From assembly GCA_001873435.1 (NCBI GenBank), contig MNZB01000003.1, forward strand, positions 70,427-134,426: 64,000 nucleotides of DNA. Reading direction: 5' to 3'. The translations under genes were made by a program, and so were the position numbers. Shown here piece after piece: positions 10,687 to 59,782 of this stretch. This DNA comes from Candidatus Pacebacteria bacterium CG2_30_36_39 (GTDB taxonomy: Bacteria; Patescibacteriota; Microgenomatia; UBA1400; PJMF01). The notes under the pieces are model-generated. The model had not been told where the DNA came from, searched no databases, and saw only the letters and a program-made list of their open reading frames with translations. Positions within the stretch are counted from its first letter, which is position 1, and each line of letters begins with the position of its first letter.

Positions 10687-11118
10687 TTATTTTGCTAATG
10701 CAATAATTAAGGTTCCAGTAGTCATAAGTATGGCACCAATGATTACTGGCAAAGTTACGTTTTCTTTAAGAAATATTGCAGCTAAAACAATTGTAATAAC
10801 CAAACTAAGCTTATCAATTGGTACTACTTTGCTGGCTTGTCCTAGCTGTAAGGCTCTGAAGTAAAAAAGCCAGGATAAGCCAGTAGCTAGACCAGATAAA
10901 ATTAAAAAGATGAACGAAGTTTTGCTGATGTTAGTAATTTGAGGTACTTGTTTTTGAGCAAGAGCAATTCCCCAGGTAAAAACTAAGATTACAGTTGTCC
11001 TGATTGCTGTAGCTAGATTAGAATTAACATCCTTAATACCGATCTTTGCCAAAATAGAAGTGGCAGCGGCAAAAACGGCAGAAAGTAGAGCATAGGTTAA
11101 CCATTGCATATCTCCCAA
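10687..11118 (-). CDS. small DMT/EamA-like membrane transporter
   Basis: 143 aa, four predicted TM helices, EamA-like composition. Confidence 0.55.
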   Translation of the reverse strand: MGDMQWLTYALLSAVFAAATSILAKIGIKDVNSNLATAIRTTVILVFTWGIALAQKQVPQITNISKTSFIFLILSGLATGLSWLFYFRALQLGQASKVVPIDKLSLVITIVLAAIFLKENVTLPVIIGAILMTTGTLIIALAK

Positions 11119-39504: not shown

Positions 39505-39963
39505 ATGGCTATTTCCATGGATGAAATTAAGAAATTAAGATTAGAGACTGGTGCTCGCGTAATGGATTGTAAGAAAGCATTAGAAGAATCTAATGGTGAT
39601 TTCAAAAAAGCCATCAAAATTGTTGAGGAAAAAGGTTTAGCTAGAGCAGAAAAAACTGCTGATCGTGAAACCAAAGCTGGCTATATTGCTACTTATGTTC
39701 ACAACAATGGTATGGTTGGTTCTATGGTTGAATTAGTTTGCGAAACAGACTTTGTTGCTCAAAATGATGAGTTCCGTAAATTGGGTAAAGAAATTGCTAT
39801 GCATGTCACAGCAATGAATCCAACTGATGTAACTGAATTATTAGAGCAAGAATTTATTCGTGATGCTAGCTTGACCATTGCTATGATGGTGAAGAGTTTG
39901 AGTGGCAAAATTGGCGAAAAAATGGAAGTAAGAAGATTTTTGCGCTATGAGGTTGGTGTTTAA
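39505..39963 (+). CDS. tsf: elongation factor Ts (short form)
   Basis: N-terminal UBA-like EF-Ts motif (IKKLRLETGARVMDCKKAL). 152 aa. Confidence 0.8.
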   Translation: MAISMDEIKKLRLETGARVMDCKKALEESNGDFKKAIKIVEEKGLARAEKTADRETKAGYIATYVHNNGMVGSMVELVCETDFVAQNDEFRKLGKEIAMHVTAMNPTDVTELLEQEFIRDASLTIAMMVKSLSGKIGEKMEVRRFLRYEVGV

Positions 39964-41926: not shown

Positions 41927-42487
41927 ATGTCCGGACACAGCAAATGGAATAATATTAAGAAACGTAAAGGTGCAGTTGATGCTAAAAAAGGTAAAGTTTT
42001 TGGAATCCTAGCTCGCCAAATTCGTGCTGCTGTTAAAGAGGGTAAATCTGGTGATCCACAATTTAATCCTACTTTACGCACTATTTTAGATAAGGCTAGG
42101 GCGGAGAACATGCCCAAAGAAAAAGTTCAAAAAGCTATTGATGTTGGCTTGGGCAAGAGTTCTGGATTAGAGGTTAAAGAAATTGTTTATGAAGGTTTTG
42201 GAACTGGTGGGGTAGGAATTTTGGCTGTAGCTTTTACCAATAATCCCAATCGTACCGGTGGGGAAGTGAAGAATATTTTTTCTAAGGGTGGTGGTTCTTT
42301 AGGATCACCTGGCTCTGCAAAATATCTCTTTAGCAGAAATCTTGACGGAGGATATTCCACCGCTATTCCCTTTCAAGTAGAGGATCCAGAGCAACAAGAG
42401 TCATTGCAAAATCTAATGGATGATTTATTGGAGAATGAAGATGTTGAAGAAGTTTTTTGTAGTGGTGAGTGGGATACTAAAGAATAA
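41927..42487 (+). CDS. yebC: YebC/PmpR family DNA-binding regulatory protein
   Basis: MSGHSKWNNIKKRK N-terminus diagnostic of the YebC family. 186 aa, shorter than typical. Confidence 0.8.
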   Translation: MSGHSKWNNIKKRKGAVDAKKGKVFGILARQIRAAVKEGKSGDPQFNPTLRTILDKARAENMPKEKVQKAIDVGLGKSSGLEVKEIVYEGFGTGGVGILAVAFTNNPNRTGGEVKNIFSKGGGSLGSPGSAKYLFSRNLDGGYSTAIPFQVEDPEQQESLQNLMDDLLENEDVEEVFCSGEWDTKE

Positions 42488-42490
42488 TCA

Positions 42491-43258
42491 ATGAGAAGAA
42501 GAGAAAAATTTGTTTTAGCTGCGGCATTTTTGAGTATTGGCCTTTTAGCGGTTCAATATACTATTTTAGAATGGCGTTATTACGCCATAGTTGGTTTGAT
42601 GATAATTACTTATTTTGTTTCTGCTTGGGCTCTACGTGATGATTTACAACGCCATGAATGGTTAACAGTTCTTCCTTTTCCAGTTATTTATACGGCTGCT
42701 GTGGCTTTATTTTATTTTCTATTACCTGGTGCCTTTCTTACTAGAGTAATTTTCTTGGCGCTATTTGGTGTAGGAATGTATGGTCTTTATTTGACTAGCA
42801 ATATTTTTTCAGTTGCCAAAGGTCGCACCATACAACTGTTGTATGCCGCACACGCTGTAGCCTTGTTTTTCACCCTTTTTACTTCAATGCTGCTGACTAA
42901 CACGATCTTCTCGTTACGTCTCCCTTTTTACAGCAATGGGGCGCTTGGTTTTTTAATTCATTTTCCATTAGTAATGATGAGTTTATGGTCTATTAAGTTA
43001 GAGTCATTTGTTGGTAAAGAAATTTTTCATAAAGCTACTTTGTTAACACTTGTGATAGCTGAGCTTATTTCTATGTTATCTCTTTTGCCTTTTCCTGCCT
43101 GGCATAGTGCTCTTTTTGTAATGGGTATTTTGTATATTGGCTTGGGTGTTTTACAAAGTCAGATTAGAGAGCGTCTTTTTCATAATACTTCCAATGAATA
43201 TAGCTTGGTGGCTGTTTTCTTGGCTTTCATTTTTTTCTTACTATTGCCTTGGAAATAG
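42491..43258 (+). CDS. hypothetical polytopic membrane protein
   Basis: 255 aa, 7-8 hydrophobic helices. Confidence 0.55.
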   Translation: MRRREKFVLAAAFLSIGLLAVQYTILEWRYYAIVGLMIITYFVSAWALRDDLQRHEWLTVLPFPVIYTAAVALFYFLLPGAFLTRVIFLALFGVGMYGLYLTSNIFSVAKGRTIQLLYAAHAVALFFTLFTSMLLTNTIFSLRLPFYSNGALGFLIHFPLVMMSLWSIKLESFVGKEIFHKATLLTLVIAELISMLSLLPFPAWHSALFVMGILYIGLGVLQSQIRERLFHNTSNEYSLVAVFLAFIFFLLLPWK

Positions 43259-43298
43259 GGAAGTTATAGCTTATTTTTTCATTTTTTAATCATTTTTT

Positions 43299-43317
43299 TA
43301 GCCTGGATACCAGGCTA
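43299..43317 (+). repeat. perfect palindrome TAGCCTGG-ATA-CCAGGCTA (possible terminator hairpin and repeat family seed)
   Basis: 8-bp arms, 3-bp loop, flanked by T-runs just after the 42491..43258 gene. The half motif recurs at 43506-43517 (GATACCAGGCTA) and 43759-43766 (TAGCCTGG). Confidence 0.5.
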
Positions 43318-43445
43318 GATTTTATAGTAGAGTGCGGTGGAGTACTCGAGAAATATCTCTGGTGAATAAGTATAGGGTTATTAAGCTAAAAATTACTAAT
43401 TTACTCTGGTGAGCTGAAATATTTAAAGGAAAAGTATTTATTGGG

Positions 43446-43568
43446 TGTGGATAAGAAATAAGTTTTGTAGCCGGAAAATGGGGAAGTGATGAACAAAAAA
43501 GGGAAGTGATACCAGGCTAAACAGGGGAAAGTGATATAGTTTGATATAGTCAGATGGATTGTGGAAAA
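43446..43568 (+). repeat. DnaA-box / triple iteron / DnaA-box cluster
   Basis: TGTGGATAA (43446-43454, perfect DnaA box complement). GGGAAGTGAT at 43481-43490 and 43501-43510 (exactly 20 bp apart) and GGGGAAAGTGAT at 43524-43535. TGTGGAAAA at 43560-43568. Confidence 0.5.
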
Positions 43569-44096
43569 CTATAGGCTTTCATGTGAAAAGTTATAGGACT
43601 TATATTTAAGATACCTCGAGTAACGGTGAGGTGTTGATCTAGTTTTATGTAGTACGCTGCTCAGATAAAGCATTAATTCTGCAAGAATAATTCCAGGCAT
43701 AGCTATAAAATTGGGTACAAAATGTCTAGACAGATCTTCTCGAGTAGGGGCAATCATTTAGCCTGGTAATATCAAGTAATAAATTATTGGTAGATATGAT
43801 CTTGTCGGAGAGAGGCAGAAAATAACCCGAATAGGTTTTTTTATCGATCCAAATCTGGTTTTAAAGGCATTTTTGGAAAGAGTGATAAGAAAATATTAAT
43901 TAATTAACAAAGAAAAAGATAAAATACCCCAGCGGGGTGGTAGTAGCGAGAGACTTACTACTCTCACTATTTGTGTGCCAAAACTACTCAGAACTAATAT
44001 GTCGCACAATATAACTTTTGCGACATAGACTATATTCAAAATCCGGAATGTGAGTTTTTCTTAAATATTAGTAATTTAGCTTATCTGATACTTATA

Positions 44097-44108
44097 TTGA
44101 TATATCAA
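44097..44108 (+). repeat. palindromic motif TTGATATATCAA (copy 1 of 4 related sites)
   Basis: Perfect 12-bp palindrome. A second perfect copy at 44241-44252. Related CTATATATCAA copies at about 44746-44757 and 46337-46347. Confidence 0.5.
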
Positions 44109-44305
44109 GGTATTTATTTATTATTTCTCTTCTTCCCTCTTTTTTTGTAAATCTTTTTTTAAGTCAAATACCTGGTTTAAATGTCTTTATTTGGGTTGCC
44201 AAAATCTGTAAAAAATATCTTTGCTAAAAATAGACTTCTGATTGATATATCAAGCTATAAAGCATAGACGATACATTGGTCGTTTAAGCCAGAAAAAGCC
44301 GTTTT

Positions 44306-44331
44306 TGAGGCATTTAGAAGCCTCATTTTTT
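44306..44331 (+). terminator. orphan intrinsic terminator in noncoding region
   Basis: TGAGGC-AUUUAGAA-GCCUCA followed by UUUUUU. No ORF upstream, so it may end a small RNA. Confidence 0.45.
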
Positions 44332-44780
44332 AGGTCTTTTGCAATGAGTTTTATTAATTGTTTTTCAAATCTTTATACTTCCACTTTCTAATCTTTGGCA
44401 AATAAACATTAGAGATTATTTTTTACTAACTAATGTTTTTGCTAACTTTTTTTGTTTTGATCAATCAGTTGATTTTAAAAAATAAAACCGTTTTTGACTG
44501 GCTGATTAATTGGCTTAAATGATGTATAAGATTTGGAGATTTTTTTGGCAGCTACTAAGTAAGTTAATTGCTAAAATAGATTTGTTCGAGAACAAGTCTA
44601 TGTAAAGACATAGGAGAAGAATTTTCTTTGTTACTCAACTACTAGATAAGAACCAGATTGGTTGTCTCGAGTTGACAGCATCCTCTTTTTTATTTTTAAT
44701 ATATCTTGATTTGGCTTAATGTATCAAAATATAGCAGGATAGTTAGAGCTATATATCAAGACATTTTTTCTCATATGGCT

Positions 44781-44809
44781 ATTAGCAGAATATACAATGC
44801 TCTGCTAAT
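44781..44809 (+). other. candidate Xer recombination (dif-like) site, copy A: ATTAGCAGA-N11-TCTGCTAAT
   Basis: 9-bp inverted arms around an 11-bp centre, 200 bp upstream of the recombinase gene. Can be read as 11-bp arms around a 7-bp centre (9/11 match). Confidence 0.4.
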
Positions 44810-45010
44810 GACTCATAGTATATAAATTTCTTTATCGAGTAGAAAGTAGTATTTTTGAAAAAAAACAATCAAATAGTAAGTTTTAATTCTCACTTCTTAG
44901 CTTTAGAAAAGCTGAATATTTTGACTTCCCCCATTATATGTTGAGTTTAGTTATAGAGCAAATAAAAACTTTACCTCGCTGATTGATTTCATTTACGGTA
45001 TAACTTAAGT

Positions 45011-45955
45011 ATGGCTGTTTCTACAGAACCCACTAAGGCTTTAATAGAATTTCTAGAATCAATAGAAGTTGAAAAAAATTTAAGTCAACTTACTTTGAGA
45101 AACTATAGCCATTATTTAAGACGTTTTAACGAATGGTTTGCTCAGCATGGATATAAGGATTTGTCTGAGTTAAACCAAGACAACTTATTAAAATACCGAG
45201 TTTTTCTAGCTAGGTATATTGATGATCAAGGCAGAACTTTATCTAAGAAAACTCAAAGTTATCATATTATTTCTTTAAGATCTTGGTTTAAATGGTTAAT
45301 AAGACATGATGCTGAAGTGCTTCATCCTGAAAAGATAGAGTTACCCAAGGCAGAGTCTACGCCGATGAAATTTGCTTCTGCTGAGAAAATAGAGATTCTC
45401 TTGAGTAAGCCAGATGTATCTGAGCCTCAAGGTTTGCGCGATCGAGCTATCTTGGAGGTTTTATTTTCAACTGGCTTACGTGTTAGCGAGCTTGTGAAGC
45501 TTAATCGAGACCAAATCGATACAAAACGTAGAGAATTTGGAGTGATTGGTAAAGGTAGGCGTCCTCGGGTGGTATTTTTGAGTGATCGGGCTGCTTCTTG
45601 GCTAGAACGTTGGTTGGCAACCAGAGAAGATGATTGGAAGCCAGTTTTTGTTCGTTTCTCTGGTAGTAAAGAAGCCAGGTTTGCTGATGGTACTGAAATG
45701 AGATTAACCACTAGAAGTGTTCAGAGATTAGTAGATCGCTATAGTCGCTTGGCTCATTTGCCTATTAAATTATCTCCTCACGGTATACGTCATAGTTTTG
45801 CCACAGACTTATTAAGCAATGGCGCTGGTTTACGTGATGTTCAAGAAATGTTGGGTCATAAAAATATCGCTACTACCCAAATTTATACTCACGTGACACG
45901 ACTGCAATTACGTAAAATTCATGAAGAACATCACTCTTTGAAAAAAGCGGAATAA
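45011..45955 (+). CDS. xerC: XerC/XerD-type tyrosine site-specific recombinase
   Basis: 314 aa. Core-binding N-domain. Catalytic motifs R..(LRVSEL), H-x-x-R (HGIRHSFAT), LGHKNIATTQIYTHV with the nucleophile Tyr. Confidence 0.85.
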   Translation: MAVSTEPTKALIEFLESIEVEKNLSQLTLRNYSHYLRRFNEWFAQHGYKDLSELNQDNLLKYRVFLARYIDDQGRTLSKKTQSYHIISLRSWFKWLIRHDAEVLHPEKIELPKAESTPMKFASAEKIEILLSKPDVSEPQGLRDRAILEVLFSTGLRVSELVKLNRDQIDTKRREFGVIGKGRRPRVVFLSDRAASWLERWLATREDDWKPVFVRFSGSKEARFADGTEMRLTTRSVQRLVDRYSRLAHLPIKLSPHGIRHSFATDLLSNGAGLRDVQEMLGHKNIATTQIYTHVTRLQLRKIHEEHHSLKKAE

Positions 45956-46287
45956 CTGATTTTTGTTATGTTTATTTATATTAATATTCATATTTAGATA
46001 TATTGTTATATTTAGTATATTTTTGTTTCATTAATACATAATAAACAATATTTTGATCGTAGTAAAAATACATTTTTTTAACTTTCATTTCAATAAAAAT
46101 GTATTTGTTATTTATTACTCCCCTACTCTCTATTTTCTTTATCAATCTTATAAATTTATTTTTTTAATTAAAATAGCTACATTACTAATAATATTTTGGT
46201 GAAGTGGGCTTGTCTTTTAAATATCTAAAATAGCTTGCTATAAAAGTCCAATCATCGAGAGCATCTGGAGAAAATAGGTTATAAGTC

Positions 46288-46316
46288 ATTAGCAGACAGA
46301 TAAAATTACTGCTAAT
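46288..46316 (+). other. candidate Xer recombination (dif-like) site, copy B: ATTAGCAG-N13-CTGCTAAT
   Basis: The same 8-bp inverted arms as copy A, 330 bp downstream of the recombinase gene. Central region differs in sequence and length. Confidence 0.35.
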
Positions 46317-46446
46317 AACCTTTTTTAGCATATATAACCTATATATCAATCTATTTTATTGAATAATATAAAACGCTCTTCAATTGAATAGGCTGGTGGA
46401 ATTTTATTTCAGAGATGGTACAATTCTCTACGTTCTTTAAATATCA

Positions 46447-46523
46447 GGGCCCGTAGCGCAGTTGGTTAGCGCGTCTGTATGGCATACAGAAGGTCAGGGG
46501 TTCGAATCCCCTCGGGTCCACCA
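46447..46523 (+). tRNA. tRNA-Ala (anticodon GGC) with encoded CCA
   Basis: Acceptor GGGCCCG/CGGGTCC with G3:U70, D-arm GCGC-AGTTGGTTA-GCGC, anticodon loop ATGGCAT, T-arm AGGGG-TTCGAAT-CCCCT, ACCA 3' end. Confidence 0.9.
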
Positions 46524-46582
46524 ATTAAATAAATTAAATTACGCACCGTTTTTGAGAAGCTCAGAGGTGCGTTTTTTTAAAC

Positions 46583-47560: not shown

Positions 47561-50311
47561 TTATTCTTCCGTTTGTTCTTCACCACCATCGCCATCTAAT
47601 TCTCCGGTAACAGCCACTGCGACAACTGCATCTTCAGGTTTGAGTTTCATCAAAATTACGCCTTGAGTTGGTCTGGTTAGGTAAGGAATAGACTTTTTAC
47701 TAATAGGCAATCTAATAGTTTGACCTTCTTTGGTACTGATTACCACATCTTTGTGAGTTTCATCAACAATTCTTGCTGAAGCTACATCACCAGTTTTTTT
47801 AGTAATTTCAGAAACCTTTACTCCCAAGCCAGATCTTTTTTGAACAGGATACTGATCTAGAGTAGTGCGTTTACCCATACCTCTTTCAGTTACGAGCAAT
47901 AGGGATGTTTTTTCAATATATGATTTTTCATCTGGAAAAGCTTCTACGCCAATTACATAATCATCTTTTTTCAAGGTAATACCCTTAACACCTTTAGTAT
48001 CACGTTGAGAAGATTTGACTTCTTCTTCAGTGAAGCGAATTGATTTACCCTGGTGGGTAATCAACATAATATGATCTTTGCCAGTGGTTACTCTACCCCA
48101 AACCAGCTCATCACCATCATTGAGAATAATGGCAACGATGCCGTTCTGACGAATATTATCGTAGAGTTTGACAGCAGTTTTCTTAACTAGACCATTGTGG
48201 GTAGCCAAGGTAATGAATTTTTCTTGATCTTCTTCAATATTTACCACCATTAAAGCCCTGGCGGTTTCATTTGGCTGCAAATTAACTAGGTTTACAACAG
48301 CCGTACCCTTAGCTTGTCTTGATGCCTCGGGAATTTCAAAGGCTCTCATGCGGAAAACACGACCTTGATTGGTGAATAAGAGCAAAGTGTCATGGGTGTT
48401 GCAACTTACTACGGCTTGAAGAACGTCTTCTTCTTTCATTTTGAGACCAGCGCTACCTTTTCCACCTCTAGATTGAGAGCGCAAAGCACTTGGACTCATA
48501 CGTTTAATATAGCCACTTTCTGTTAAGGTAATAACAGCTATTTCATTGGCCACAAGATCTTCTTCACTGAATTCTCCAATTTTACCCTTAACTAATTTTG
48601 TACGACGCTCATCTCCATAAAGCTCAATCATTTCTTCAGTTTCTTTGACGATGACATCTAAAATGTTTTGTGGGGAGGTAAGAAGTAGTAATAAGGCATC
48701 CATCTTTTCTTTAATGGTCTTATATTCATCTTCTATTTTTTGTCTTTCAAGGGCAGCAAGTCTCTTGAGTTGCATTTCAAGAATAGCTAAGGCTTGTTTT
48801 TCACTCAAACCAAATTTTTTCATCAATGATTCTCTAGCCGTATCTGTGTCTTTTGATTTGCGAATAGTAGCAATTACTTCATCAAGGTTTTTAAGGGCAA
48901 TTAATAAACCTTCTAAGATATGAGCACGATCTCGAGCTTCTGCCAATTCAAATTGAGATCTTTTGACTACTACTAATTGACGGTGAACGATATATTCTTT
49001 CAAGATCTGGCGCAAGTTCATTAGCTGAGGTGTTCCCTCACTATCGAGTGCGACCATGTTCATTGAGAATGTTGATTGTAGTTCTGAATATTTAAATAGT
49101 TTGTTCAAGACGACTTTTGGTCGAGCATCACGTTTTAATTCAATCACAACGCGCATGCCAACACGATCTGATTCATCGCGAAGGTTTTTAATGCCAATGA
49201 TTTTTTTATCGCGAACTAAATCAGCGATTTTCATCAACATTCTAGCTTTATTAACTTGATAAGGAATTTCAGTAACAATAATACTGAAACCACCCTTTTT
49301 CTCTTCCTCAATTGAGGCTTTGGCGCGTACAACCACTTTTCCCCTACCAGTTCGATAGCCTTCTTTAATGGCATTAAAATCATACATAATACCAGCAGTT
49401 GGAAAATCTGGACCCTGAATATGGGTCATTAATTCCTCAAATTCTACTTCAGTCTCAAATTCTCCAGACAACTCACTTGATTTTGCAGCTAGGACGGCAT
49501 CAATAGCTTCATTATTTGCTAGATCACCATTCTTTTTGATGTCTTTTTGTTCAACAACTATCTTCTCTACCGGAGATTTTCCTTTGGTAATCATGGCAAT
49601 GATTGATTTGCTTACCTCAGTTAAATTGTGAGGTGGAATCTTGGTTGCCATACCAACAGCGATGCCTTCAGAGCCCATCAACAAAAGATTGGGAAGACGA
49701 GTTGGCAAGACAGATGGCTCTGTCATAGAACCATCAAAATTATCTACAAAAGGAACGGTTTCTTTATTGATATCAGCTAAGAGCTCTTGAGAAATTTTGG
49801 CTAAACGAGCTTCTGTGTAACGCATGGCAGCTGGACTATCACCATCAACAGAGCCAAAGTTACCCTGTCCATCAACTAGTGGATAGCGCATGCTAAATTC
49901 TTGAGCTAAGCGAACCATAGCTAAATAAACAGAAGAATCACCATGAGGGTGATATTTACCTAAAACATCACCTACGATACGAGCTGATTTTTTATAAGAA
50001 CTATTGTGGTGAATACCACTTTTGTACATTGAAAACAGAATACGACGATGAACTGGTTTCATGCCGTCTCTAACGTCAGGTAAAGCTCTGGAAACGATAA
50101 CACTCATGGCGTAATCCAGATAGGATTTTTCCATTTCGCTTACGATTGAAGTATGTTTGACTTTACCAAATCTGGTTTCTTCAATGGTGCCGATTAATGA
50201 GTCGCCATTAGAATATTCTTCAGTTACTTCTTCATTCAAAGTTGGAGTAGTTTCTTCAACTATTTCTTCGTTTAACTCTTCATTTTCTAATGGTTTATTT
50301 TCGTCAGTCAT
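47561..50311 (-). CDS. gyrA: DNA gyrase subunit A
   Basis: [24 protein letters not shown] active-site Tyr region, C-terminal beta-pinwheel repeats. About 60-aa insertion before the GPDFPT motif. Confidence 0.95.
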
Positions 50312-50336
50312 ACTTTTGCTGTTTCTAATTACTTGG

Positions 50337-51284
50337 TTATTGTTTTAAGGCTTTTTCAATAGGTGGAGCGATTTCTTTTTTACGAGACATCTTGGCTCCA
50401 ATATCAATGATTTGATCGGTGACAACTCCGCCAAAGGCTTTTTGAGCAACCTTTGCTTCTTCATCGCCAATGATTAAGATTTTGCTATTAACTTTTAAGA
50501 CATCAGTAATAACAACAAATAGTAAATCAACACCTTCTTGCTCTTTTACTTGTTGCATGGCCTTTAATAGGTCTTGTTTCTTCTCCCCCACCAGTTTGTC
50601 TTGTTCAACTGTTTCTAGTTGGTCAATAAAAACTTTTTTGCCAAAATCAAAAACCTTGTAATCATTACGAATAATTTGTTCATCACTAAGACTGGAAACA
50701 TCAGATTTAGCTTTGAAAATCTCTAGAGCAAAACCATCAATGTCGGTAATTCCAGCAAGCTTGGCTAATTCCATTCCCAATTCTTTATCTTTATCAGTAC
50801 AAGTAGCTGATTTAAAACCAACTGTATCTGAAAGAATAGCAGCTAACATTATGCTGGCTAGGTTTTTGTCAGGGACCACGTTGTTTTGTTTCATGAGGAA
50901 ATAAACAATAGTGTTGGAAGATCCCCAAGTTTTAAAAGTCATGTAAATTGGTTGAGAGAAGTTTAAATTAGCCTTGTGGTGATCAATAATCTCGACAATT
51001 TGTTGTGGATTGATGCCAGGCATGCGTTGAGATTCTTCATTGTGATCAACTAGGACGATGGAGTCATCAGTAGTAATATCAGCAGCACTGATTTGTCTAG
51101 GAGCTTTTAAGCCAAATTTATCAAACAAAAAACTTGTTTCTGGATTGAGTGGATCTGCCATAACAGCCTCAGCATTGGGATGGCAAAAGCATTTTTCTTG
51201 TTGAAATAAAAACTGCAATGCCATAGCGGCAACTACTGAATCTGTATCTGGTTTAATGTGTCCAAGGATGTATGTTTTTGCCAT
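50337..51284 (-). CDS. ppaC: manganese-dependent inorganic pyrophosphatase (family II, DHH-DHHA2)
   Basis: Closely parallels Bacillus PpaC: ILGHxxPDTDS, [32 protein letters not shown] at 51284 directly after the gyrB stop. The ORF track's longer start is 51410. Confidence 0.8.
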
Positions 51285-51297
51285 AAATTTCCTTTTT

Positions 51298-53373
<2,076 letters not shown>

Positions 53374-53392: not shown

Positions 53393-54133
53393 TTAGTGAC
53401 TATGCTGCTTGATTGTAAAAAAACAATGTTCAATAACAAGCTTCACATTACCATTTTTTTGCCATGAATCAAGAGCAGTGCTTAGACTCTTGAGAGTAAA
53501 AACAGTTTTATGTTTATTTTCTAGGAGAATTTTAATTACTTTGGTAAGTTCCTTTTCCTTATTTTCAGATTTACTCCATTGTTCTGCTAAGTTAATTAGT
53601 TCTCCATAGTTTTTGCTAGCTGGATTGAGACAGAACTCCAGAGTTGTTTCTAAGTGTTCTGGTAAATTTAGATTTTCATTATTTTTTATTTTACTAAGAT
53701 TAATTTCTTGGCAACGAGAAGTTATTGTAGCCAAAATATTCGAGCCCTGGGTTTTAACTAAAGCAAAACCAATGTTTGCTGGTGGTTCTTCAAGGATTTT
53801 GAGTAATGCATTTTGAGCTGGCAAGCTAGCTTTGTCTGCGGCGCAAAAAACATAAATAATGCTTTCATCTGCACCTCGACCATAACTTGCTTGTTGGATG
53901 ATGGTCCTAATTAGTTCTATGGGTAGATTTTCCTCAGTTGTATTTAGGAAAATTAACTTGCTATTTGGGTATTTTTTTTGTAAATACTCACGAGCTAATG
54001 ACTCATGTTCACCATTCTCTGGTACGGTAAGCAAAACTGATATAGAAAGGTCTGGTTCGAATCCTTTTTTTCTCATAGCCATTGTGTCATTATATTCTAT
54101 GAATAATGACTGAGCCTGCCCAATCAACTCCAC
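53393..54133 (-). CDS. holB: DNA polymerase III delta-prime subunit
   Basis: LLKILEEPP motif, T..SRC sensor. GTG start per the ORF track. Alternative TTG at 54127 with AGGAG 9 nt upstream, or ATG at 54082. Confidence 0.7.
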   Translation of the reverse strand: MELIGQAQSLFIEYNDTMAMRKKGFEPDLSISVLLTVPENGEHESLAREYLQKKYPNSKLIFLNTTEENLPIELIRTIIQQASYGRGADESIIYVFCAADKASLPAQNALLKILEEPPANIGFALVKTQGSNILATITSRCQEINLSKIKNNENLNLPEHLETTLEFCLNPASKNYGELINLAEQWSKSENKEKELTKVIKILLENKHKTVFTLKSLSTALDSWQKNGNVKLVIEHCFFTIKQHSH

Positions 54134-55875
54134 CGGCTCCTATTGCTGTTCCTCAACATTTTTTGGATATCTTGTTGCGGGACAAAAAGTTAACTGAAGA
54201 TCAGGTTAATCAGCTACGCAACGAGCAGTTGCAAACAAATACATCTTACGAAGATCTTCTTCTTGAAAAAAAATGGGTTTCAGAGCTAGAGCTAACCAAG
54301 GCCAAAGCTGAGTTCAATGACATTCCTTTTACTTCTATTGCTGAAACCAGTATTTTGCCTGAGGCTTTGAATTTAGTGGGAGAAAGTGTCGCTAAGCGCT
54401 ATGGAGTTTTGGCTTTTTCCTATGACAAACCAGGAAAGACTCTAAAAGTTGCCATGAAAGATCCTTTGGATATTTCGGCAATCAGTTTTATTAAGCAAAA
54501 AACTGGTTTGAATGTTGAAGTTCATGCTGCTGTTCCTTCTGAGCTAGATCAGGCTTTAGCAGAACGTTATTCTGATGATATTTCTACCGAAGTTGATCAG
54601 GCTCTTGAACAAACTGGCGGTCAATCTGACAAAGTAATTAAACAGCAAAATGCTTCTCTTCGTTCTGAAGTGATGAGAGATGCTCCAGTTAATCGTATAG
54701 TGGAGACTATTTTGGATTTTGCTTTAAAAACCAGAGCTTCTGATGTACATATTGAGCCTCAGCAAGGTAGGACCAGAATTCGTTATCGTATCGATGGTAT
54801 CTTGACTGAAAAATTAGTTTTACCTCGTACAGTGCATGATGCAGTGGTATCTCGTATTAAGATTATCGCTAACTTGAAAATCGATGAAAAAAGAGTCCCT
54901 CAGGATGGTCGTTTTAATTATGTAGCAGATAGCATGGAGATTGATTTGCGTGTCTCTACTTTACCTACCATTAATGGAGAAAAAGTGGTGATGCGTTTGC
55001 TTAAGAAAAATACTACAGTACCTACTTTTGAGGAATTGGGCCTTAATGGTTTGGCTTTAAAGAATCTACGTGATGCCATGAAAATTCCTCGTGGCATTAT
55101 TTTAGTAACAGGTCCTACTGGTTCTGGTAAAACAACAACTCTTTATTCGGTTTTACATGAAATAAATACTCCTAAAGTAAATATTATGACTATTGAGGAT
55201 CCAGTTGAGTACCAGATGGCTGGTGTTAGTCAGGTGCAAATTAATCCTCAGGCTGGTTTGACTTTTGCCACTGGTTTGCGTTCTTTCTTACGTCAGGACC
55301 CTGACATTATCATGGTGGGAGAAATTCGTGATACAGAAACTGCGGAGCTTGCCATCCAAGCTTCGCTCACAGGTCATTTGGTGTTCTCTACCCTACATAC
55401 CAATTCTGCCTCTGGCGCTATCCCCCGTTTAATTGATATGGGCATGGAGCCTTTCTTGTTGGCTTCCACAATTACTTTAGTAATGGCTCAGCGTGTAGTA
55501 CGTCGTATCAATCCAGAGTATCGAGAAGAATATGTTCCAGAAGAAGCTGTGGTAGCAAATATTAAAGAGGTGTTGGGTGAAAGATATTTACAATGGTGTC
55601 AAATCAGTAAAAAAGATCCAGCCAAACCAATCCTCTATCGCCCTTCAAACAATCGACCTGCTACAGAACCAGACTACTTGGGTCGTATTGCTATTTTTGA
55701 GGTTTTTGCTGTTACAGAAGAAATTAATCGCATGATTATTGAGCGTAAAAATGATGTTGATATTGAGAGAGTTGGTTTGAAAAATGGCATGCTTTTGATG
55801 AAACAAGATGGTTATATCAAAGCGCTTGAAGGTATTACTACCATCGAAGAAGTATTAAGAGTAGCAGAGGTATAA
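54106..55875 (+). CDS. pilB: type IV pilus assembly ATPase PilB (GspE family)
   Basis: GspII N-domain, Walker A GPTGSGKTTT, Asp box, His box, Walker B. Confidence 0.9.
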   Translation: MTEPAQSTPPAPIAVPQHFLDILLRDKKLTEDQVNQLRNEQLQTNTSYEDLLLEKKWVSELELTKAKAEFNDIPFTSIAETSILPEALNLVGESVAKRYGVLAFSYDKPGKTLKVAMKDPLDISAISFIKQKTGLNVEVHAAVPSELDQALAERYSDDISTEVDQALEQTGGQSDKVIKQQNASLRSEVMRDAPVNRIVETILDFALKTRASDVHIEPQQGRTRIRYRIDGILTEKLVLPRTVHDAVVSRIKIIANLKIDEKRVPQDGRFNYVADSMEIDLRVSTLPTINGEKVVMRLLKKNTTVPTFEELGLNGLALKNLRDAMKIPRGIILVTGPTGSGKTTTLYSVLHEINTPKVNIMTIEDPVEYQMAGVSQVQINPQAGLTFATGLRSFLRQDPDIIMVGEIRDTETAELAIQASLTGHLVFSTLHTNSASGAIPRLIDMGMEPFLLASTITLVMAQRVVRRINPEYREEYVPEEAVVANIKEVLGERYLQWCQISKKDPAKPILYRPSNNRPATEPDYLGRIAIFEVFAVTEEINRMIIERKNDVDIERVGLKNGMLLMKQDGYIKALEGITTIEEVLRVAEV

Positions 55876-55879
55876 GTTT

Positions 55880-56959
55880 ATGAGTCAGATTACGATTCAA
55901 GAATCGACGATAAAAGCATTGCTAGATTTATTGATTACTCAGAATGGTTCTGATCTTCATTTGTTGGTAGGAGTAGTTCCTACCTTGCGTGTTAATGGTA
56001 GATTGCACCCAGTAGAGAATATGGCTCCTCTTACCAATGAAGATTCTAAGGCTCTAATATTTCCTCTTTTGACCAAGAAACAACAGGAATATGTTTTGGA
56101 GAACAAAGAACTTGATTTTGGTTACGAACATACCAATCGAGCTCGTTTTCGTATTAACGTTTATTATGAAAAAGATAATTTATCTGCAGCGATGCGCTTT
56201 ATTCCTTCCAAAATTCGTTCCATTGATGAGTTGGGTTTGCCAACTATTTTTCACCAGTTTACTCAATACTCTCAAGGCTTAATTCTGATTACTGGTCCTA
56301 CTGGTGAAGGTAAATCTACAACTCTGGCAGCTATGATTGATGAGGTTAATCACACTAGAGCTGAGCATATTTTAACAATCGAAGATCCTATTGAGTTTGT
56401 TTATGAACACGATAAAAGCATTATTTCTCAAAGAGAAGTTAATAGAGATACGTTTTCTTGGGAAATGTCATTGCGCTCAGCTTTACGTGAGGATCCTGAT
56501 GTGGTTCTAATTGGTGAAATGCGTGATTTTGAAACTATCGCTGCGGCTATTACCATTGCAGAAACCGGTCATTTGGTTTTGGCTACTTTACATACCGCTA
56601 CTGCTGCCCAAACTATTGATCGTATTATTGATGTCTTTCCTGCCCACCAACAATCTCAAATTAGAATGCAGTTGGCTGGAAGCTTACAAGCGGTAGTGTC
56701 GCAACGTTTAGTTACTAAGGTTGATGGTAGTTTAACTGCTGCTTTTGAAATTATGATGGCCAATTCAGCTGTTAGAAGTATGATTCGCGAAGAGAAAACT
56801 CATCAACTTGATGGCGTAATTCAAACTTCAGCTCAAGATGGCATGATGCTTTTTGAAAATCATTTAGCTCAGCTCATTCAACAAGGAACTATTAGTAAAG
56901 ATTCCGCTCTAAGAAAAGCTTTTAGGCCAGCAGAGCTACTGAGGTTAATCGGAGAGTAA
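55880..56959 (+). CDS. pilT: type IV pilus retraction ATPase PilT
   Basis: Walker A GPTGEGKSTT, PilT-specific AIRNLIRE-like region (AVRSMIREEK). Confidence 0.9.
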   Translation: MSQITIQESTIKALLDLLITQNGSDLHLLVGVVPTLRVNGRLHPVENMAPLTNEDSKALIFPLLTKKQQEYVLENKELDFGYEHTNRARFRINVYYEKDNLSAAMRFIPSKIRSIDELGLPTIFHQFTQYSQGLILITGPTGEGKSTTLAAMIDEVNHTRAEHILTIEDPIEFVYEHDKSIISQREVNRDTFSWEMSLRSALREDPDVVLIGEMRDFETIAAAITIAETGHLVLATLHTATAAQTIDRIIDVFPAHQQSQIRMQLAGSLQAVVSQRLVTKVDGSLTAAFEIMMANSAVRSMIREEKTHQLDGVIQTSAQDGMMLFENHLAQLIQQGTISKDSALRKAFRPAELLRLIGE

Positions 56960-56968
56960 ATTTAGAAT

Positions 56969-58168
56969 ATGCCAGTTTTTACATATACAGCAAAAAACGC
57001 TCATGGCGAAACTGTTAAGGGCAAGGTTGAGTCACAGAACAAAAGCTTGGCTGCTGGTATTTTAATCTCTCGTAATTTATTGGTAATCGATATTGCTGCA
57101 GCCAATGAAACTGGTTTATTTATTTCTAGTGTACTTAATAAGGTTAAGCATGAAGATTTGGTTAATTTCACTCGTCAGCTGGCGACCATGATCGATGCTG
57201 GTCTGCCCTTGGCAACTGGTCTAACAATTCTTAAAGACCAAGATAATCCTGCTATGACTGAAGTGGTAGCTTCTTTACTAAGAGAAGTTGAGGGTGGCGC
57301 TTCGTTTGCTAAAGCTTTGGAAAAACATCCTGATGTTTTTGATCGTATTTTTGTGCAGTTGGTTAAGGCTGGTGAGGTAGGTGGTGTTTTGGATAAGGTA
57401 TTGGATAAATTAGCTGAAAATCTAGAGAAAGATAAAGAATTTAGGGCCAAAACCAAGGGAGCGATGATTTATCCTGTGATCGTTTTTATCGCCATGTTGG
57501 TGGTTGGGTTTGTAATGATGGTTTTTGTGATTCCCAAATTGACTGATATGTATAAAGATTTTGGAGCTGAGTTGCCATTACCAACTTTGATATTGATGTC
57601 TATCGCTAATTTTATGGCAAATTTTTGGTGGTTAATTCTTTTAATTGTTGGTGGTGGAGCTTCTGCATTGCGTAGCTGGAACAAAACAACTATTGGCCAG
57701 CGCAAGATTGATGAGATTTTATTTAAAATTCCGGTTTATGGTATTTTGCGACAAAAAATTATTTTAACAAGTTTTTCTAGAACCCTTTCTTTGCTTTTGA
57801 GTTCTGGTGTTCCTTTGCTTAATGCTTTGATGATCGTAACGGAATCTATGGATAGTATTCTTTATCGCGAAGCGATGATGACAATTACTAAGCGGGTAGA
57901 AAAAGGCGTGACTCTTTCCAAAGCTGTTTCCTACTTCACTCTTTTTCCTGGTATTTTGCATCAAATGTTGGGTGTAGGAGAAGAAACAGGCAAGCTTGAT
58001 GAAGTGTTATTAAAACTTTCTAAATATTTTGAATCTGAAAGTGAGCAGGCAGTTAAAAACTTAACAGCCGCCATGGAACCTTTGATCATGGTAGTTCTTG
58101 GCGTTGGTGTAGGTGCAATGGTGATTGCTATCATTATGCCTATCTATAGTTTAACCAGTCAGTTCTAG
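56969..58168 (+). CDS. pilC: type IV pilus platform protein PilC (GspF family)
   Basis: Two T2SSF repeats, 3 TM segments. 399 aa. Confidence 0.9.
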   Translation: MPVFTYTAKNAHGETVKGKVESQNKSLAAGILISRNLLVIDIAAANETGLFISSVLNKVKHEDLVNFTRQLATMIDAGLPLATGLTILKDQDNPAMTEVVASLLREVEGGASFAKALEKHPDVFDRIFVQLVKAGEVGGVLDKVLDKLAENLEKDKEFRAKTKGAMIYPVIVFIAMLVVGFVMMVFVIPKLTDMYKDFGAELPLPTLILMSIANFMANFWWLILLIVGGGASALRSWNKTTIGQRKIDEILFKIPVYGILRQKIILTSFSRTLSLLLSSGVPLLNALMIVTESMDSILYREAMMTITKRVEKGVTLSKAVSYFTLFPGILHQMLGVGEETGKLDEVLLKLSKYFESESEQAVKNLTAAMEPLIMVVLGVGVGAMVIAIIMPIYSLTSQF

Positions 58169-58250
58169 TTACTTGAAGGCTCGCCTCTTGTGCTGCTGGT
58201 TAAAAATAGTTTATAGTAAGTAAGTGTATAAACACGAAGGGATGTATAAA

Positions 58251-58883
58251 ATGAAAAAGATATTTTCACTCTTCAATCAGGTCAAACAGCAAGCTGGTTT
58301 TACAATGACTGAGCTGTTGATCGTGATTGGTATTTTGGGAATCTTGGCTGTTGCCGTTTTGGCTGCCATCAATCCTATTGAACAGATTAATAGAGGTCGT
58401 GACACTGGTAGTCGCTCTGATACGGAGCAGTTGATTAGTGCTATTGACCGTTACTATGCATTTAATGGTTATTATCCATGGCAAACAGGTGCTTCTGACG
58501 TAGGTAATGTCGCCCTTGCTTGGGTTCATTTTGAGGACACCACTCTAACTGATAGTGGTGGAACTTGTAAGTTGGGTGAAAAGCTTGGTACTGCTACAAC
58601 TGTTGGTTGTACTGGCTCTGATGAACTCAAACAAAGCTTTATCGAAAGAGTTTCGGCCGCTACTTATAACTATATTTATATTTATAACAACGGTGCTCAG
58701 GGTAGTAGTACTTATGCCTGCTATGCTCCAAAGTCAAATGCTTTTGTGCAAGAAGTAAAAGGCAGACTAGATCCGGATAATGACGGAACTTATGATAACT
58801 ACCCAGCTGACTATCCTTATAGCGATGCTATTGGTAACACTGCTCAATGTGGTGCATCTGGAAACTGTGTTTGTATTCCGTAG
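58251..58883 (+). CDS. pilA: type IV major pilin
   Basis: Class III signal ...KQQAG/FTMTELLIVIGILGILA with Glu+5. The Cys pair near the C-terminus (CGASGNCVC) forms a D-region. The ORF track start is 58224. Confidence 0.8.
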   Translation: MKKIFSLFNQVKQQAGFTMTELLIVIGILGILAVAVLAAINPIEQINRGRDTGSRSDTEQLISAIDRYYAFNGYYPWQTGASDVGNVALAWVHFEDTTLTDSGGTCKLGEKLGTATTVGCTGSDELKQSFIERVSAATYNYIYIYNNGAQGSSTYACYAPKSNAFVQEVKGRLDPDNDGTYDNYPADYPYSDAIGNTAQCGASGNCVCIP

Positions 58884-58918
58884 TCTGAAACTTAAGAAAA
58901 ATATAACTCCCCTGCCTT

Positions 58919-59782
58919 ATGGAGGGGAGTTTTTGTTGTATACTCAAGGTCATGATGTTTTTTGAAATCATTGGTTTTTTTGTTTTCCTATTTGGAGCTG
59001 CCATTGGTAGTTTTCTAAATGTTTTAGTTTATCGTTCTATGAGGGGACAAGATTGGGTTAATGAACGTTCTGTTTGTGAAAAGTGTAAGAAAAAAATTCC
59101 TTGGTATGAAAATATTCCTATTTTTTCTTATCTATTTTTGCGCGGCAGATGTTCTGGGTGTCAAACAAAAATAGATAAGATTCATCCTTTGGTTGAAACG
59201 ATGACGGGGATTTTATTTTTATGGTGGTATTTTGCTGGTTATATTTTCTTTAAAATTAGTAGTGCTCCCCTACTCTATGTTCAACCTATTTTTTGGTTAT
59301 TTATTAGTATTATTTTTATCGTTATTTTTCTGGTTGATCTCAAATATTACGTTATTCCAAATTGGACAATTTCATTTCTTACCTTTGGTACTTTGGTTTA
59401 TCGTTTTCTCCTGCTTTTTTCTGGAGAAATGCGTTGGATAGATTTTGGTTGGAGCTTGGTTTGGACTGTTTGTTTTTTTGGTTTTTTCTTTGGTTTGAAA
59501 TTAATTGCTAGTTGGTTAGCAAAAAAAGAGGCTTTTGGTGATGGAGATGTTTTGTTGGCAATTCCTTTGGGTCTGATTCTTGGTTCGTGGCAGAGGATTT
59601 TAGTAGCCTTATTCTTTTCCTTTGTAATTGGTGCAATAGTAGGGGTTATCTTGATAATATCGAATAAAAAGACTATTAAAAGTAATCTACCTTTTGGTCC
59701 TTTTCTCATCATTTCAACTCTCATCAGCTTGGTGTGGGGCTACAAAATCTTGGCTGAATATGTCAAGATAGTACTTAGATAA
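58919..59782 (+). CDS. pilD: prepilin peptidase (A24 family) PilD
   Basis: N-terminal CxxC..CxxC zinc box, 8 TM, conserved Asp pair (AFGDGDV). Confidence 0.85.
   Translation: MEGSFCCILKVMMFFEIIGFFVFLFGAAIGSFLNVLVYRSMRGQDWVNERSVCEKCKKKIPWYENIPIFSYLFLRGRCSGCQTKIDKIHPLVETMTGILFLWWYFAGYIFFKISSAPLLYVQPIFWLFISIIFIVIFLVDLKYYVIPNWTISFLTFGTLVYRFLLLFSGEMRWIDFGWSLVWTVCFFGFFFGLKLIASWLAKKEAFGDGDVLLAIPLGLILGSWQRILVALFFSFVIGAIVGVILIISNKKTIKSNLPFGPFLIISTLISLVWGYKILAEYVKIVLR

Follow-up and report, generated by a model that had tools for sequence, protein, structure and literature searches.

The subject of this analysis is a gene-poor island within a 64,000-nucleotide stretch of DNA (positions 70,427 to 134,426 of contig MNZB01000003.1; hereafter the window, in whose coordinates all positions are given) from Candidatus Pacebacteria bacterium CG2_30_36_39. 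Sequence comparisons indicate that the island is very probably the chromosome dimer-resolution (dif/Xer) locus of this Candidatus Pacebacteria chromosome, from the Microgenomates within the Candidate Phyla Radiation (CPR). The original prediction, made from the sequence of the window, had offered three unranked readings of the island, and the first of them, a replication-terminus (dif) region, is the one that found support, in a site with the architecture of dif, a gene of the Xer family, and a switch in the orientation of both a polar motif and the surrounding genes. The arrangement of site, recombinase and motif is conserved in dozens of species. For comparison, 80 loci from other species were collected by means of the recombinase (recombinase identity 55-84%), with the pooled k-mer scan resting on 67 recombinase-anchored loci and the site alignment on 68 sequences. 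A second set comprised 120 metagenome loci (L087-L206) found by the pattern of the site only, with one site each, 101 of which had no xer in the DNA retrieved.

The core site comprises 28 bp, with a 6-bp centre between inverted 11-bp arms that are complementary at 10 of 11 positions, i.e. the layout of dif (Table 1). A weight-matrix scan found the site to be unique in the window, the next match, at 13 bits, being its own reverse strand, and the xer gene starts 984 bp downstream of it. In a BLASTN comparison of the gap containing the site with the 80 loci, short blocks were far better conserved than the identity of the recombinase would predict, the block at 43998-44032 reaching up to 100% over 35 nt where the recombinase was only ~70% identical. 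Of the 80 recombinase-anchored loci, 70 contained the site with at most 7 mismatches, at a distance of 0.3-6 kb upstream of xer, and most of the 10 loci without it were also without upstream DNA. Across the aligned sequences, arm positions 3, 5, 6, 8, 10, 11, 12, 20, 21, 23, 24 and 25 were invariant, the arms as a whole being nearly so, and the central hexamer varied (TATAAC, TATTAC, TAATAC, TATATC and others). A common G to A variant of the right arm, TTTTACGAC, would create a C-A mismatch in an RNA stem, and no change in the left arm ever compensates for it; the constraint therefore acts on a double-stranded DNA site rather than on an RNA hairpin. There was one site per locus in the 67 recombinase-anchored and the 120 site-first loci, no second copy or other dif-like site of at least 15 bits was found in the 67 loci, and a scan of viral contigs for the 28-bp site gave no match.

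In five species (L049, L050, L052, L054 and L061) the 28-bp site was inverted relative to xer and to the module of conserved elements that flanks it, with the surroundings keeping their order, and the intrinsic asymmetry of the site is therefore not locked to chromosome polarity. Whether the direction of the site with respect to its flanks is informative was also considered, and the idea was dropped, as the convergent pattern is symmetric under reversal.

Three direct repeats at 43480-43531 recall the FtsK-orienting polar sequence (KOPS) of E. coli, GGGNAGGG. The polar motif, AGGGGAG or GGGNAGWG, is directed at the site from both sides. Within the window, the ratio of plus- to minus-strand copies of GGGNAGWG was 9:0 to the left of the site and 1:4 to the right, that of [AG]GGGNAG was 23:2 and 4:12, and GGGAAG switched strand between 43501 and 44132, an interval that brackets the site; the merged motif set gave a Fisher p of 1.7e-4, with the best split at 43.75-46 kb. 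This polarity held across 44 kb on the left and 20 kb on the right, including the plus-strand pilus genes at 54-62 kb. An unbiased scan of 6-, 7- and 8-mers in the pooled loci ranked AGGGGA, GGGGAG, AGGGGAG and AGGGGAGA at the top for a strand flip at the site, with AGGGGAGA reaching 9.5 times the expected count on the favoured strand and 1.0 times on the opposite one. AGGGGAG was distributed 110:3 on the left and 19:125 on the right in the recombinase-anchored loci, and the bias was present on the left in 47 of 48 loci and on the right in 43 of 48. The flip took place within ~100 bp, with the best split point 50 bp from the site, and the density of the motif climbed toward the site to a peak 250-500 nt to its left. 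Left of the site the counts were 194:15 in plus-strand genes and 38:5 in minus-strand genes, and right of it 10:59 and 36:132, respectively. As the bias was present alike in plus-strand genes, minus-strand genes and intergenic DNA, it is not an effect of ribosome-binding sites or of the coding strand. Over-representation, strand bias above 90%, rising density and convergence are also the features reported for KOPS around dif, the published hallmarks being 11+6+11 sites, a leading strand that carries more than 90% of the KOPS nearby, and a KOPS density rising toward dif (PMC5357621).

Since the recombinase-anchored loci share synteny, the test was repeated on loci found by the site alone. In the 101 site-first metagenome loci without xer, AGGGGAG was again the top-ranked 7-mer, with counts of 94:3 on the left and 8:71 on the right. 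The same site and converging polar motif were observed on metagenome contigs of 30-57% GC (L087-L206) with no xer gene in the DNA retrieved, and, as judged from these matches, the site is much more widespread than its arrangement with a linked xer gene. Closed or near-closed genomes also have the site, near 741.5 kb of 853 kb in CP011212.1, 149 kb of 1.17 Mb in BOKR01000001.1, 929 kb of 1.08 Mb in JACKFW010000001.1 and 94 kb of 1.12 Mb in JACPKY010000002.1. The genes likewise change direction: left of the site, ~71% of the coding bases in long open reading frames (ORFs) are plus-strand, and right of it ~67% are minus-strand. Because the G-rich motif and the genes converge here, and would diverge at an origin, the site is read as dif at the terminus.

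Several observations weigh against this reading. The cumulative GC skew of the window dips only at 46-53 kb, over the minus-strand gyrase genes, and then rises, and in the pooled loci a rough skew corrected for gene strand is positive on both sides of the site (~0.09 left, ~0.045 right). GC skew here is dominated by coding-strand composition, which makes it ambiguous as a test for a terminus; of the check on cumulative skew and gene strand bias that the original prediction had proposed, the skew was thus ambiguous and the gene orientation converged at the site. Oligomer polarity, not GC skew, is the decisive signal. An xer gene was nearby in only 12 of the 42 site-first loci having at least 2.5 kb of right flank, and its linkage is therefore lineage-specific rather than inherent to the site. 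A search of the window and the fetched loci for the Walker-A signature of ftsK found none; a CPR bacterium, TM7x, has been reported to have ftsK (PMC10768705). Finally, the DnaA-box-like sequence TGTGGAWAAC and iterons lie 100-600 bp from the site, and such elements are unexpected at a terminus.

These last elements are also what an origin of replication, chromosomal or plasmid-derived, would offer, the alternative being that the island combines DnaA boxes, iterons and an AT-rich unwinding region. A perfect DnaA box is present at 43446-43454, a conserved box with one mismatch lies at 43560-43568 within the iteron-like repeats, the adjoining DNA has a GC content of 27.6%, and gyrA, gyrB and holB are within 10 kb, gyrB and gyrA being near many origins. 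However, the site is a point of convergence for genes and G-rich polar motif alike, and the plus strand to its left is G-rich, as would fit a leading strand running toward it. Further, the boxes number only two, the count of DnaA boxes across the window is that of chance (18 found against 19.65 expected), the closest relatives do not share the perfect box, neither dnaA nor dnaN was found in the window, and the best-conserved element has the architecture of a recombinase core site beside an Xer gene. An origin is accordingly considered very unlikely. The DnaA-box-like sequences reported in the original prediction are real in the sense that one perfect and one single-mismatch copy occur, but their total in the window is no more than chance.

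For a dif locus, a mechanism can be proposed by analogy. An odd number of crossovers would join sister chromosomes; an FtsK-type translocase bound at the septum, the presence of FtsK in this genome being assumed, would read the polar motifs and pump DNA toward the site; Xer protomers would bind the two nearly identical 11-bp arms; and strand exchange by Xer across the 6-bp centre would restore monomers. Because the arms are almost symmetric, a single species of recombinase probably acts on both. That FtsK takes part and that only one recombinase is used are both inferences.

The recombinase itself matches Pfam Phage_integrase (1.3e-40) and SAM_1, a SAM-like N-terminal domain, and its predicted catalytic Arg, Lys, His, Arg, His and Tyr all align with those of E. 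coli XerD (1a0p), which is also the best-matching solved structure (5e-42, compared with 9e-12 for XerH). Its C-terminal tail reads LRKIHEEHH where that of XerD reads LRQLHQQHH. It scored below the cut-offs of the NCBIfam models for XerD (TIGR02225; 243.7 bits, cut-off 329.6) and XerC (TIGR02224; 240.9 bits, cut-off 335.15), as well as those of the XerA (194 bits, cut-off 220) and XerS (114.4 bits, cut-off 267) models. By its predicted components the system is thus of the Xer/dif kind, with a recombinase that reaches none of the curated XerC, XerD, XerA and XerS thresholds. The window holds no other gene of this type, and each related locus has one copy. A subgroup of simple tyrosine recombinases termed 'Cand', related to Xer and found in candidate phyla, has been described (Smyshlyaev et al. 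2021, PMC8138268), and the recombinase here probably belongs to it; the available part of that publication defines no recombination site or polar motif for the group. Groundwater metagenomes, that of Crystal Geyser among them, include contigs encoding an identical recombinase protein, as do NCBI records named Candidatus Pacebacteria. Pacebacteria-like Xer proteins were also observed on two records under other names: L021 (CP011212.1, titled 'candidate division TM6'), with 71% identity and an exact copy of the site, and L058 (DATKWX010000105.1, titled 'Bathyarchaeia archaeon'), with 60% identity, in which the site is missing and another tyrosine recombinase is present. These two records may be mislabelled or wrongly binned.

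The presence of a recombinase and a tRNA-Ala gene in the island, noted originally, was upheld by a Phage_integrase match and a tRNA-Ala(GGC) call, and a tyrosine recombinase adjoining a tRNA gene in AT-rich, gene-poor DNA is also the configuration expected of a remnant of an integrative element or genomic island, in which the integrase survived and the cargo decayed to AT-rich noncoding DNA. The tract between site and recombinase in relatives holds heterogeneous genes, e.g. acetyltransferase-like and HAD-like, which is compatible with such an origin. However, the recombinase is 55-84% identical over the 80 loci with one copy in each, and the order of the flanking genes is kept. The tRNA-Ala(GGC) gene is intact and follows xer in 26 of 26 loci tested from the Pacebacteria clade, being absent only in more distant loci; judged by this synteny, it is a conserved neighbour and not an integration scar. 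No repeat of the tRNA 3' end occurs in the window, a TBLASTN search of the island with 24 proteins encoded between site and xer in relatives gave nothing below E = 0.02 and hence no trace of a pseudogene, no viral contig carried the site, and neither an empty site nor bounding direct repeats of the att kind were seen. A decayed integrative element is therefore regarded as extremely improbable, and the second of the original readings, a decayed integrative element or plasmid-origin remnant, did not hold in view of the conserved recombinase and synteny, the lack of a repeated tRNA end or pseudogene trace, and the presence of two DnaA boxes only.

The comparison of synteny that the original prediction had suggested showed that the flanking order is kept and the tract between dif and xer is variable. 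Relatives maintain the succession yebC, 255-aa gene, site, xer and gyrA, the 255-aa gene being present in 70, yebC in 68 and gyrA in 61 of 81 loci. Between dif and xer, several relatives (e.g. L016, L018, L063, L065, L071, L053, L057 and L067) carry unrelated genes that differ by species, and this tract is therefore a variable spot. The inserted genes fall into three small families (acetyltransferase-like, HAD-like and sugar-phosphate-isomerase-like) plus singletons, which suggests an insertion hotspot beside dif, though one without a second dif-like site flanking the inserts.

In the window, the genes preceding the gap are rpsB, tsf, a LytR_C protein gene, a TPR protein gene (minus strand), yebC and a gene for a 255-aa protein (42491-43258) that is membrane-like and conserved, without a family match. 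The recombinase gene follows the gap and is separated by 491 nt from the tRNA gene and its terminator, beyond which genes for a 297-aa protein, gyrA, a DHH/DHHA2 protein, gyrB and holB all lie on the minus strand. With genes taken as ORFs of at least 90 aa, the 1,752-nt gap at 43259-45010 is the largest in the window, the runner-up being the 627 nt between xer and the following gene, which contain the tRNA gene. The median gap is 20.5 nt and the coding fraction 89%. The description of an AT-rich, gene-poor island among tightly packed genes was accordingly sustained, GC content being 30.6% at 43260-45010, 27.6% at 44027-45010 and 22.6% at 45956-46446, compared with 36.2% for the whole window. 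The ORF listing likewise agreed that the stretches of 1.75 and 0.49 kb hold no ORF of at least 60 aa other than one of 62 aa: this ORF, at 43569-43757 on the minus strand, is the sole one in 43259-45010, and none occurs within 45956-46446. No ORF inside the 1,752-nt gap behaves like a gene. Conserved noncoding DNA elements, rather than genes, fill the island, which accounts for its low gene content.

Ordinary protein genes of fewer than 60 aa filling the gap would be another explanation. The two gaps contain about 50 stop-to-stop frames of 25 aa or longer, of which a few gave TBLASTN matches in the closest relatives. However, matches in different frames and from both strands coincided on one stretch of DNA (43648-43766, for example, in four frames), which therefore reflects conservation at the level of DNA rather than of a specific frame, and no frame was kept beyond L007 and L009. 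The chance that such genes account for the gap is considered next to negligible.

A large structured noncoding RNA, or several small RNAs, spanning 43475-44335 and ending at the orphan terminator was also weighed. The two closest relatives show 66-68% conservation at the DNA level across ~870 nt, terminator-like hairpins on the plus strand exceed the expected number (7 against 1.8; one of them, at 44306-44325, is the 'orphan' terminator noted in the original prediction), the single-sequence fold of 43470-43850 has a z-score of -2.2, and a short transcript may end at 44335. However, in a search of Rfam 15 the gathering score was reached for the tRNA only, with nothing credible at E<=10; RNAalifold gave -5.4 kcal/mol with an unfavourable covariation term for six sequences over 43600-43995, and no structure for the block at 44240-44335; conservation takes the form of short sequence-invariant blocks between indel-rich spacers; and the strongest 'hairpin', that of the dif-like site, carries uncompensated changes. 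An RNA locus is thus very unlikely, and the last of the original readings, a large noncoding RNA, was abandoned for want of an Rfam match in the proposed search, of a consensus structure and of compensated hairpin changes.

The dif-like site is accompanied by further conserved noncoding elements (Table 1). Of the repeat families and palindromes listed originally, several proved to be conserved in other species (GGGAAGTGAT in three copies, TTGATATATCAA in two and TTAGCAG-N13-CTGCTAA in two), but many two-copy families were at the level of chance. To the left of the site, copies of CCAGGCT or AGCCTGG cluster, CCAGGCT in relatives being concentrated within 600 nt left of the site. The position of the triplet of polar motifs is conserved in relatives. 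The TGATATAGT repeat, nearly always in the same orientation and mostly 300-600 nt from the site, is, besides dif, among the most widely conserved noncoding elements. TGTGGAWAAC was present in 57 of the 67 recombinase-anchored loci and 34 of the 120 site-first loci, with nearly all copies less than 800 nt from the site directed at it, and a few species have an inverted copy of the module on the other side of the site. An undescribed polar accessory module of the Microgenomates beside dif, made up of the three KOPS-like repeats, the TGATATAGT repeat and the iterons (TGTGGAWAAC...TTATAGGAC), which lie 100-600 bp from the core site and are nearly always directed at it, can be put forward only tentatively, as a rather unlikely possibility; it might serve as a platform for loading or activation of the translocase, as sequences conferring topological selectivity on a single Xer (cf. 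plasmid cer and psi), or as a DnaA-binding or fork-barrier element at the terminus.

Table 1. Coordinates of the core site, genes and noncoding elements of the island (window positions)
Feature	Position	Strand	Remarks
Terminator-like hairpin AGCCTGG-ATA-CCAGGCT	43297-43319	+	Ends upstream 255-aa gene
Three direct polar-motif copies, GGGGAAGTG, AGGGAAGTG, AGGGGAAAG	43480-43531	+	20-25 nt apart, all toward dif
Direct repeat TGATATAGT-T-TGATATAGT	43532-43550	+	In 50/67 loci
Two iteron-like units, TGTGGAAAACTATAGGC, TGTGAAAAGTTATAGGAC	43560-43599	+	First holds DnaA-box-like TGTGGAAAA (reverse complement TTTTCCACA)
dif-like core site	43999-44026	n/a	ATGTCGCACAA-TATAAC-TTTTGCGACAT; weight matrix 49 bits
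Perfect palindrome TTGATATATCAA, copy 1	44097-44108	n/a	Only two exact copies in 64 kb
Perfect palindrome TTGATATATCAA, copy 2	44242-44253	n/a	Opens conserved block 44240-44335
Nearly invariant AAAAAGCCGTTTTTG, then orphan hairpin GAGGC-N8-GCCTC and T-run	44297-44335	+	16 loci
Composite module: half-palindrome GCTATATATCAAG, ~22 nt, TTAGCAG-N13-CTGCTAA	44748-44808	+	Candidate promoter/operator of xer
Xer-family tyrosine recombinase, 314 aa	45011-45955	+	Pfam; alignment to E. coli XerD
Composite module, inverted order: TTAGCAG-N13-CTGCTAA, ~23 nt, ATATATCAAT	46289-46351	-	Between xer and tRNA
tRNA-Ala(GGC)	46447-46523	+	tRNA/Rfam match
Terminator-like hairpin after tRNA	46547-46579	+	Where plus- and minus-strand transcription converge

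The elements to the right of dif look like protein-binding sites. The two TTAGCAG-N13-CTGCTAA palindromes are the only ones in the 64 kb and are candidates for palindromic sites of protein binding; a role as RNA hairpins was rejected as changes in the half-sites are uncompensated, and one as a sigma-70 promoter as the -10 positions are not conserved. The composite elements could be operators for xer and the tRNA gene, or recombination or architectural sites, and the palindromes around these two genes are probably regulatory. The bracketing of xer by an inverted composite (TTGATNNATCAA, ~22 nt, TTAGCAG-N13-CTGCTAA) was also observed in L008, L010, L011, L013 and L029. A separate short sequence, CCGTTTTTG, occurs five times in the window against 0.62 expected, at 44299, 44488 and 46546 on the plus strand and at 11070 and 25017 on the minus strand; three copies are in or beside the island, two of these at terminator-like hairpins.

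Among known systems, the predicted locus resembles XerCD/dif with FtsK and KOPS in its 28-bp 11+6+11 site, in a recombinase closest to XerD and XerC, and in a G-rich, over-represented polar motif that lies more than 90% on one strand and converges with rising density. The inner arm bases here, TT(T/G)TGCG, resemble the canonical TTATG(C/T) of dif. In contrast to XerCD/dif, there is one Xer gene in the window, linked to the site and under both the XerC and XerD equivalog cut-offs, and the arms are nearly symmetric to their ends (10/11), whereas canonical dif arms differ in their outer halves. The motif also differs from KOPS, being AGGGGAG or GGGNAGWG rather than GGGNAGGG, and its density, taken from the pooled counts, is ~0.6 per kb on the favoured strand, compared with ~1 per 13 kb for E. 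coli KOPS (PMC5357621).

The locus also resembles the single-recombinase systems XerS, XerH, XerL and XerA, in its one Xer gene in view and its near-symmetric arms. XerS/difSL of streptococci and lactococci employs one recombinase that is linked to its site and depends on FtsK (PMC5357621), and the locus here likewise has a single Xer gene in view that is genetically linked to the site. However, difSL is 31 bp long with an 11-bp centre, unequal arms and xerS immediately adjacent, whereas the site here has 28 bp and a 6-bp centre, with the gene ~0.3-6 kb away and other genes insertable between; the lactococcal polar motifs are A-rich heptamers, unlike the motif here. XerA/dif of Archaea combines a single recombinase with a 28-bp site of 11-bp inverted repeats and a 6-bp centre, with polar sequences skewed toward dif (PMC5357621), and is matched here by the 11+6+11 site, the one Xer gene in view and polar sequences skewed toward the site; XerA, however, works without FtsK and has polar 4-mers (GTTG, GTTC), whereas the motif here is KOPS-like. 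XerH/difH of Helicobacter and Campylobacter and XerL/dif of Legionellales are comparable as single-recombinase systems with near-palindromic sites that were missed, or found late, by homology surveys, but their site sequences are unrelated to that described here, and the recombinase here is much closer to XerD than to XerH.

Elsewhere in the window, two genes look shortened: EF-Ts (39505-39963, 152 aa) aligns with no more than the first 77 of the 204 positions in Pfam EF_TS, and YebC/TACO1 (41927-42487, 186 aa) only the first 55 of 160 positions of the domain-2/3 profile. At 47561-53313 a DHH/DHHA2 phosphoesterase gene lies between gyrB and gyrA, all three being oriented toward dif, and at 54106-59782 there is a type IV pilus or type II secretion cluster with two T2SSE ATPases, a T2SSF platform protein and a prepilin peptidase.

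A literature search found no paper defining a dif site or a KOPS-like motif for CPR bacteria. The 2011 dif survey spanned 16 phyla and predates the availability of CPR genomes. A defined site and motif would provide a marker of the terminus where GC skew is weak, an aid in closing and checking metagenome-assembled genomes and in estimating growth from origin-to-terminus coverage, and a handle for finding Xer-hijacking elements in CPR organisms. The conserved DNA elements beside dif, including the DnaA-box-like one, are directly testable, and if the accessory module is what is tentatively proposed above, the module together with an xer-linked dif would amount to a distinct way of organising chromosome resolution that is shared across a lineage of ultra-small bacteria. 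The locus would likewise allow a single-recombinase system to be tested in bacteria whose division machinery is minimal.

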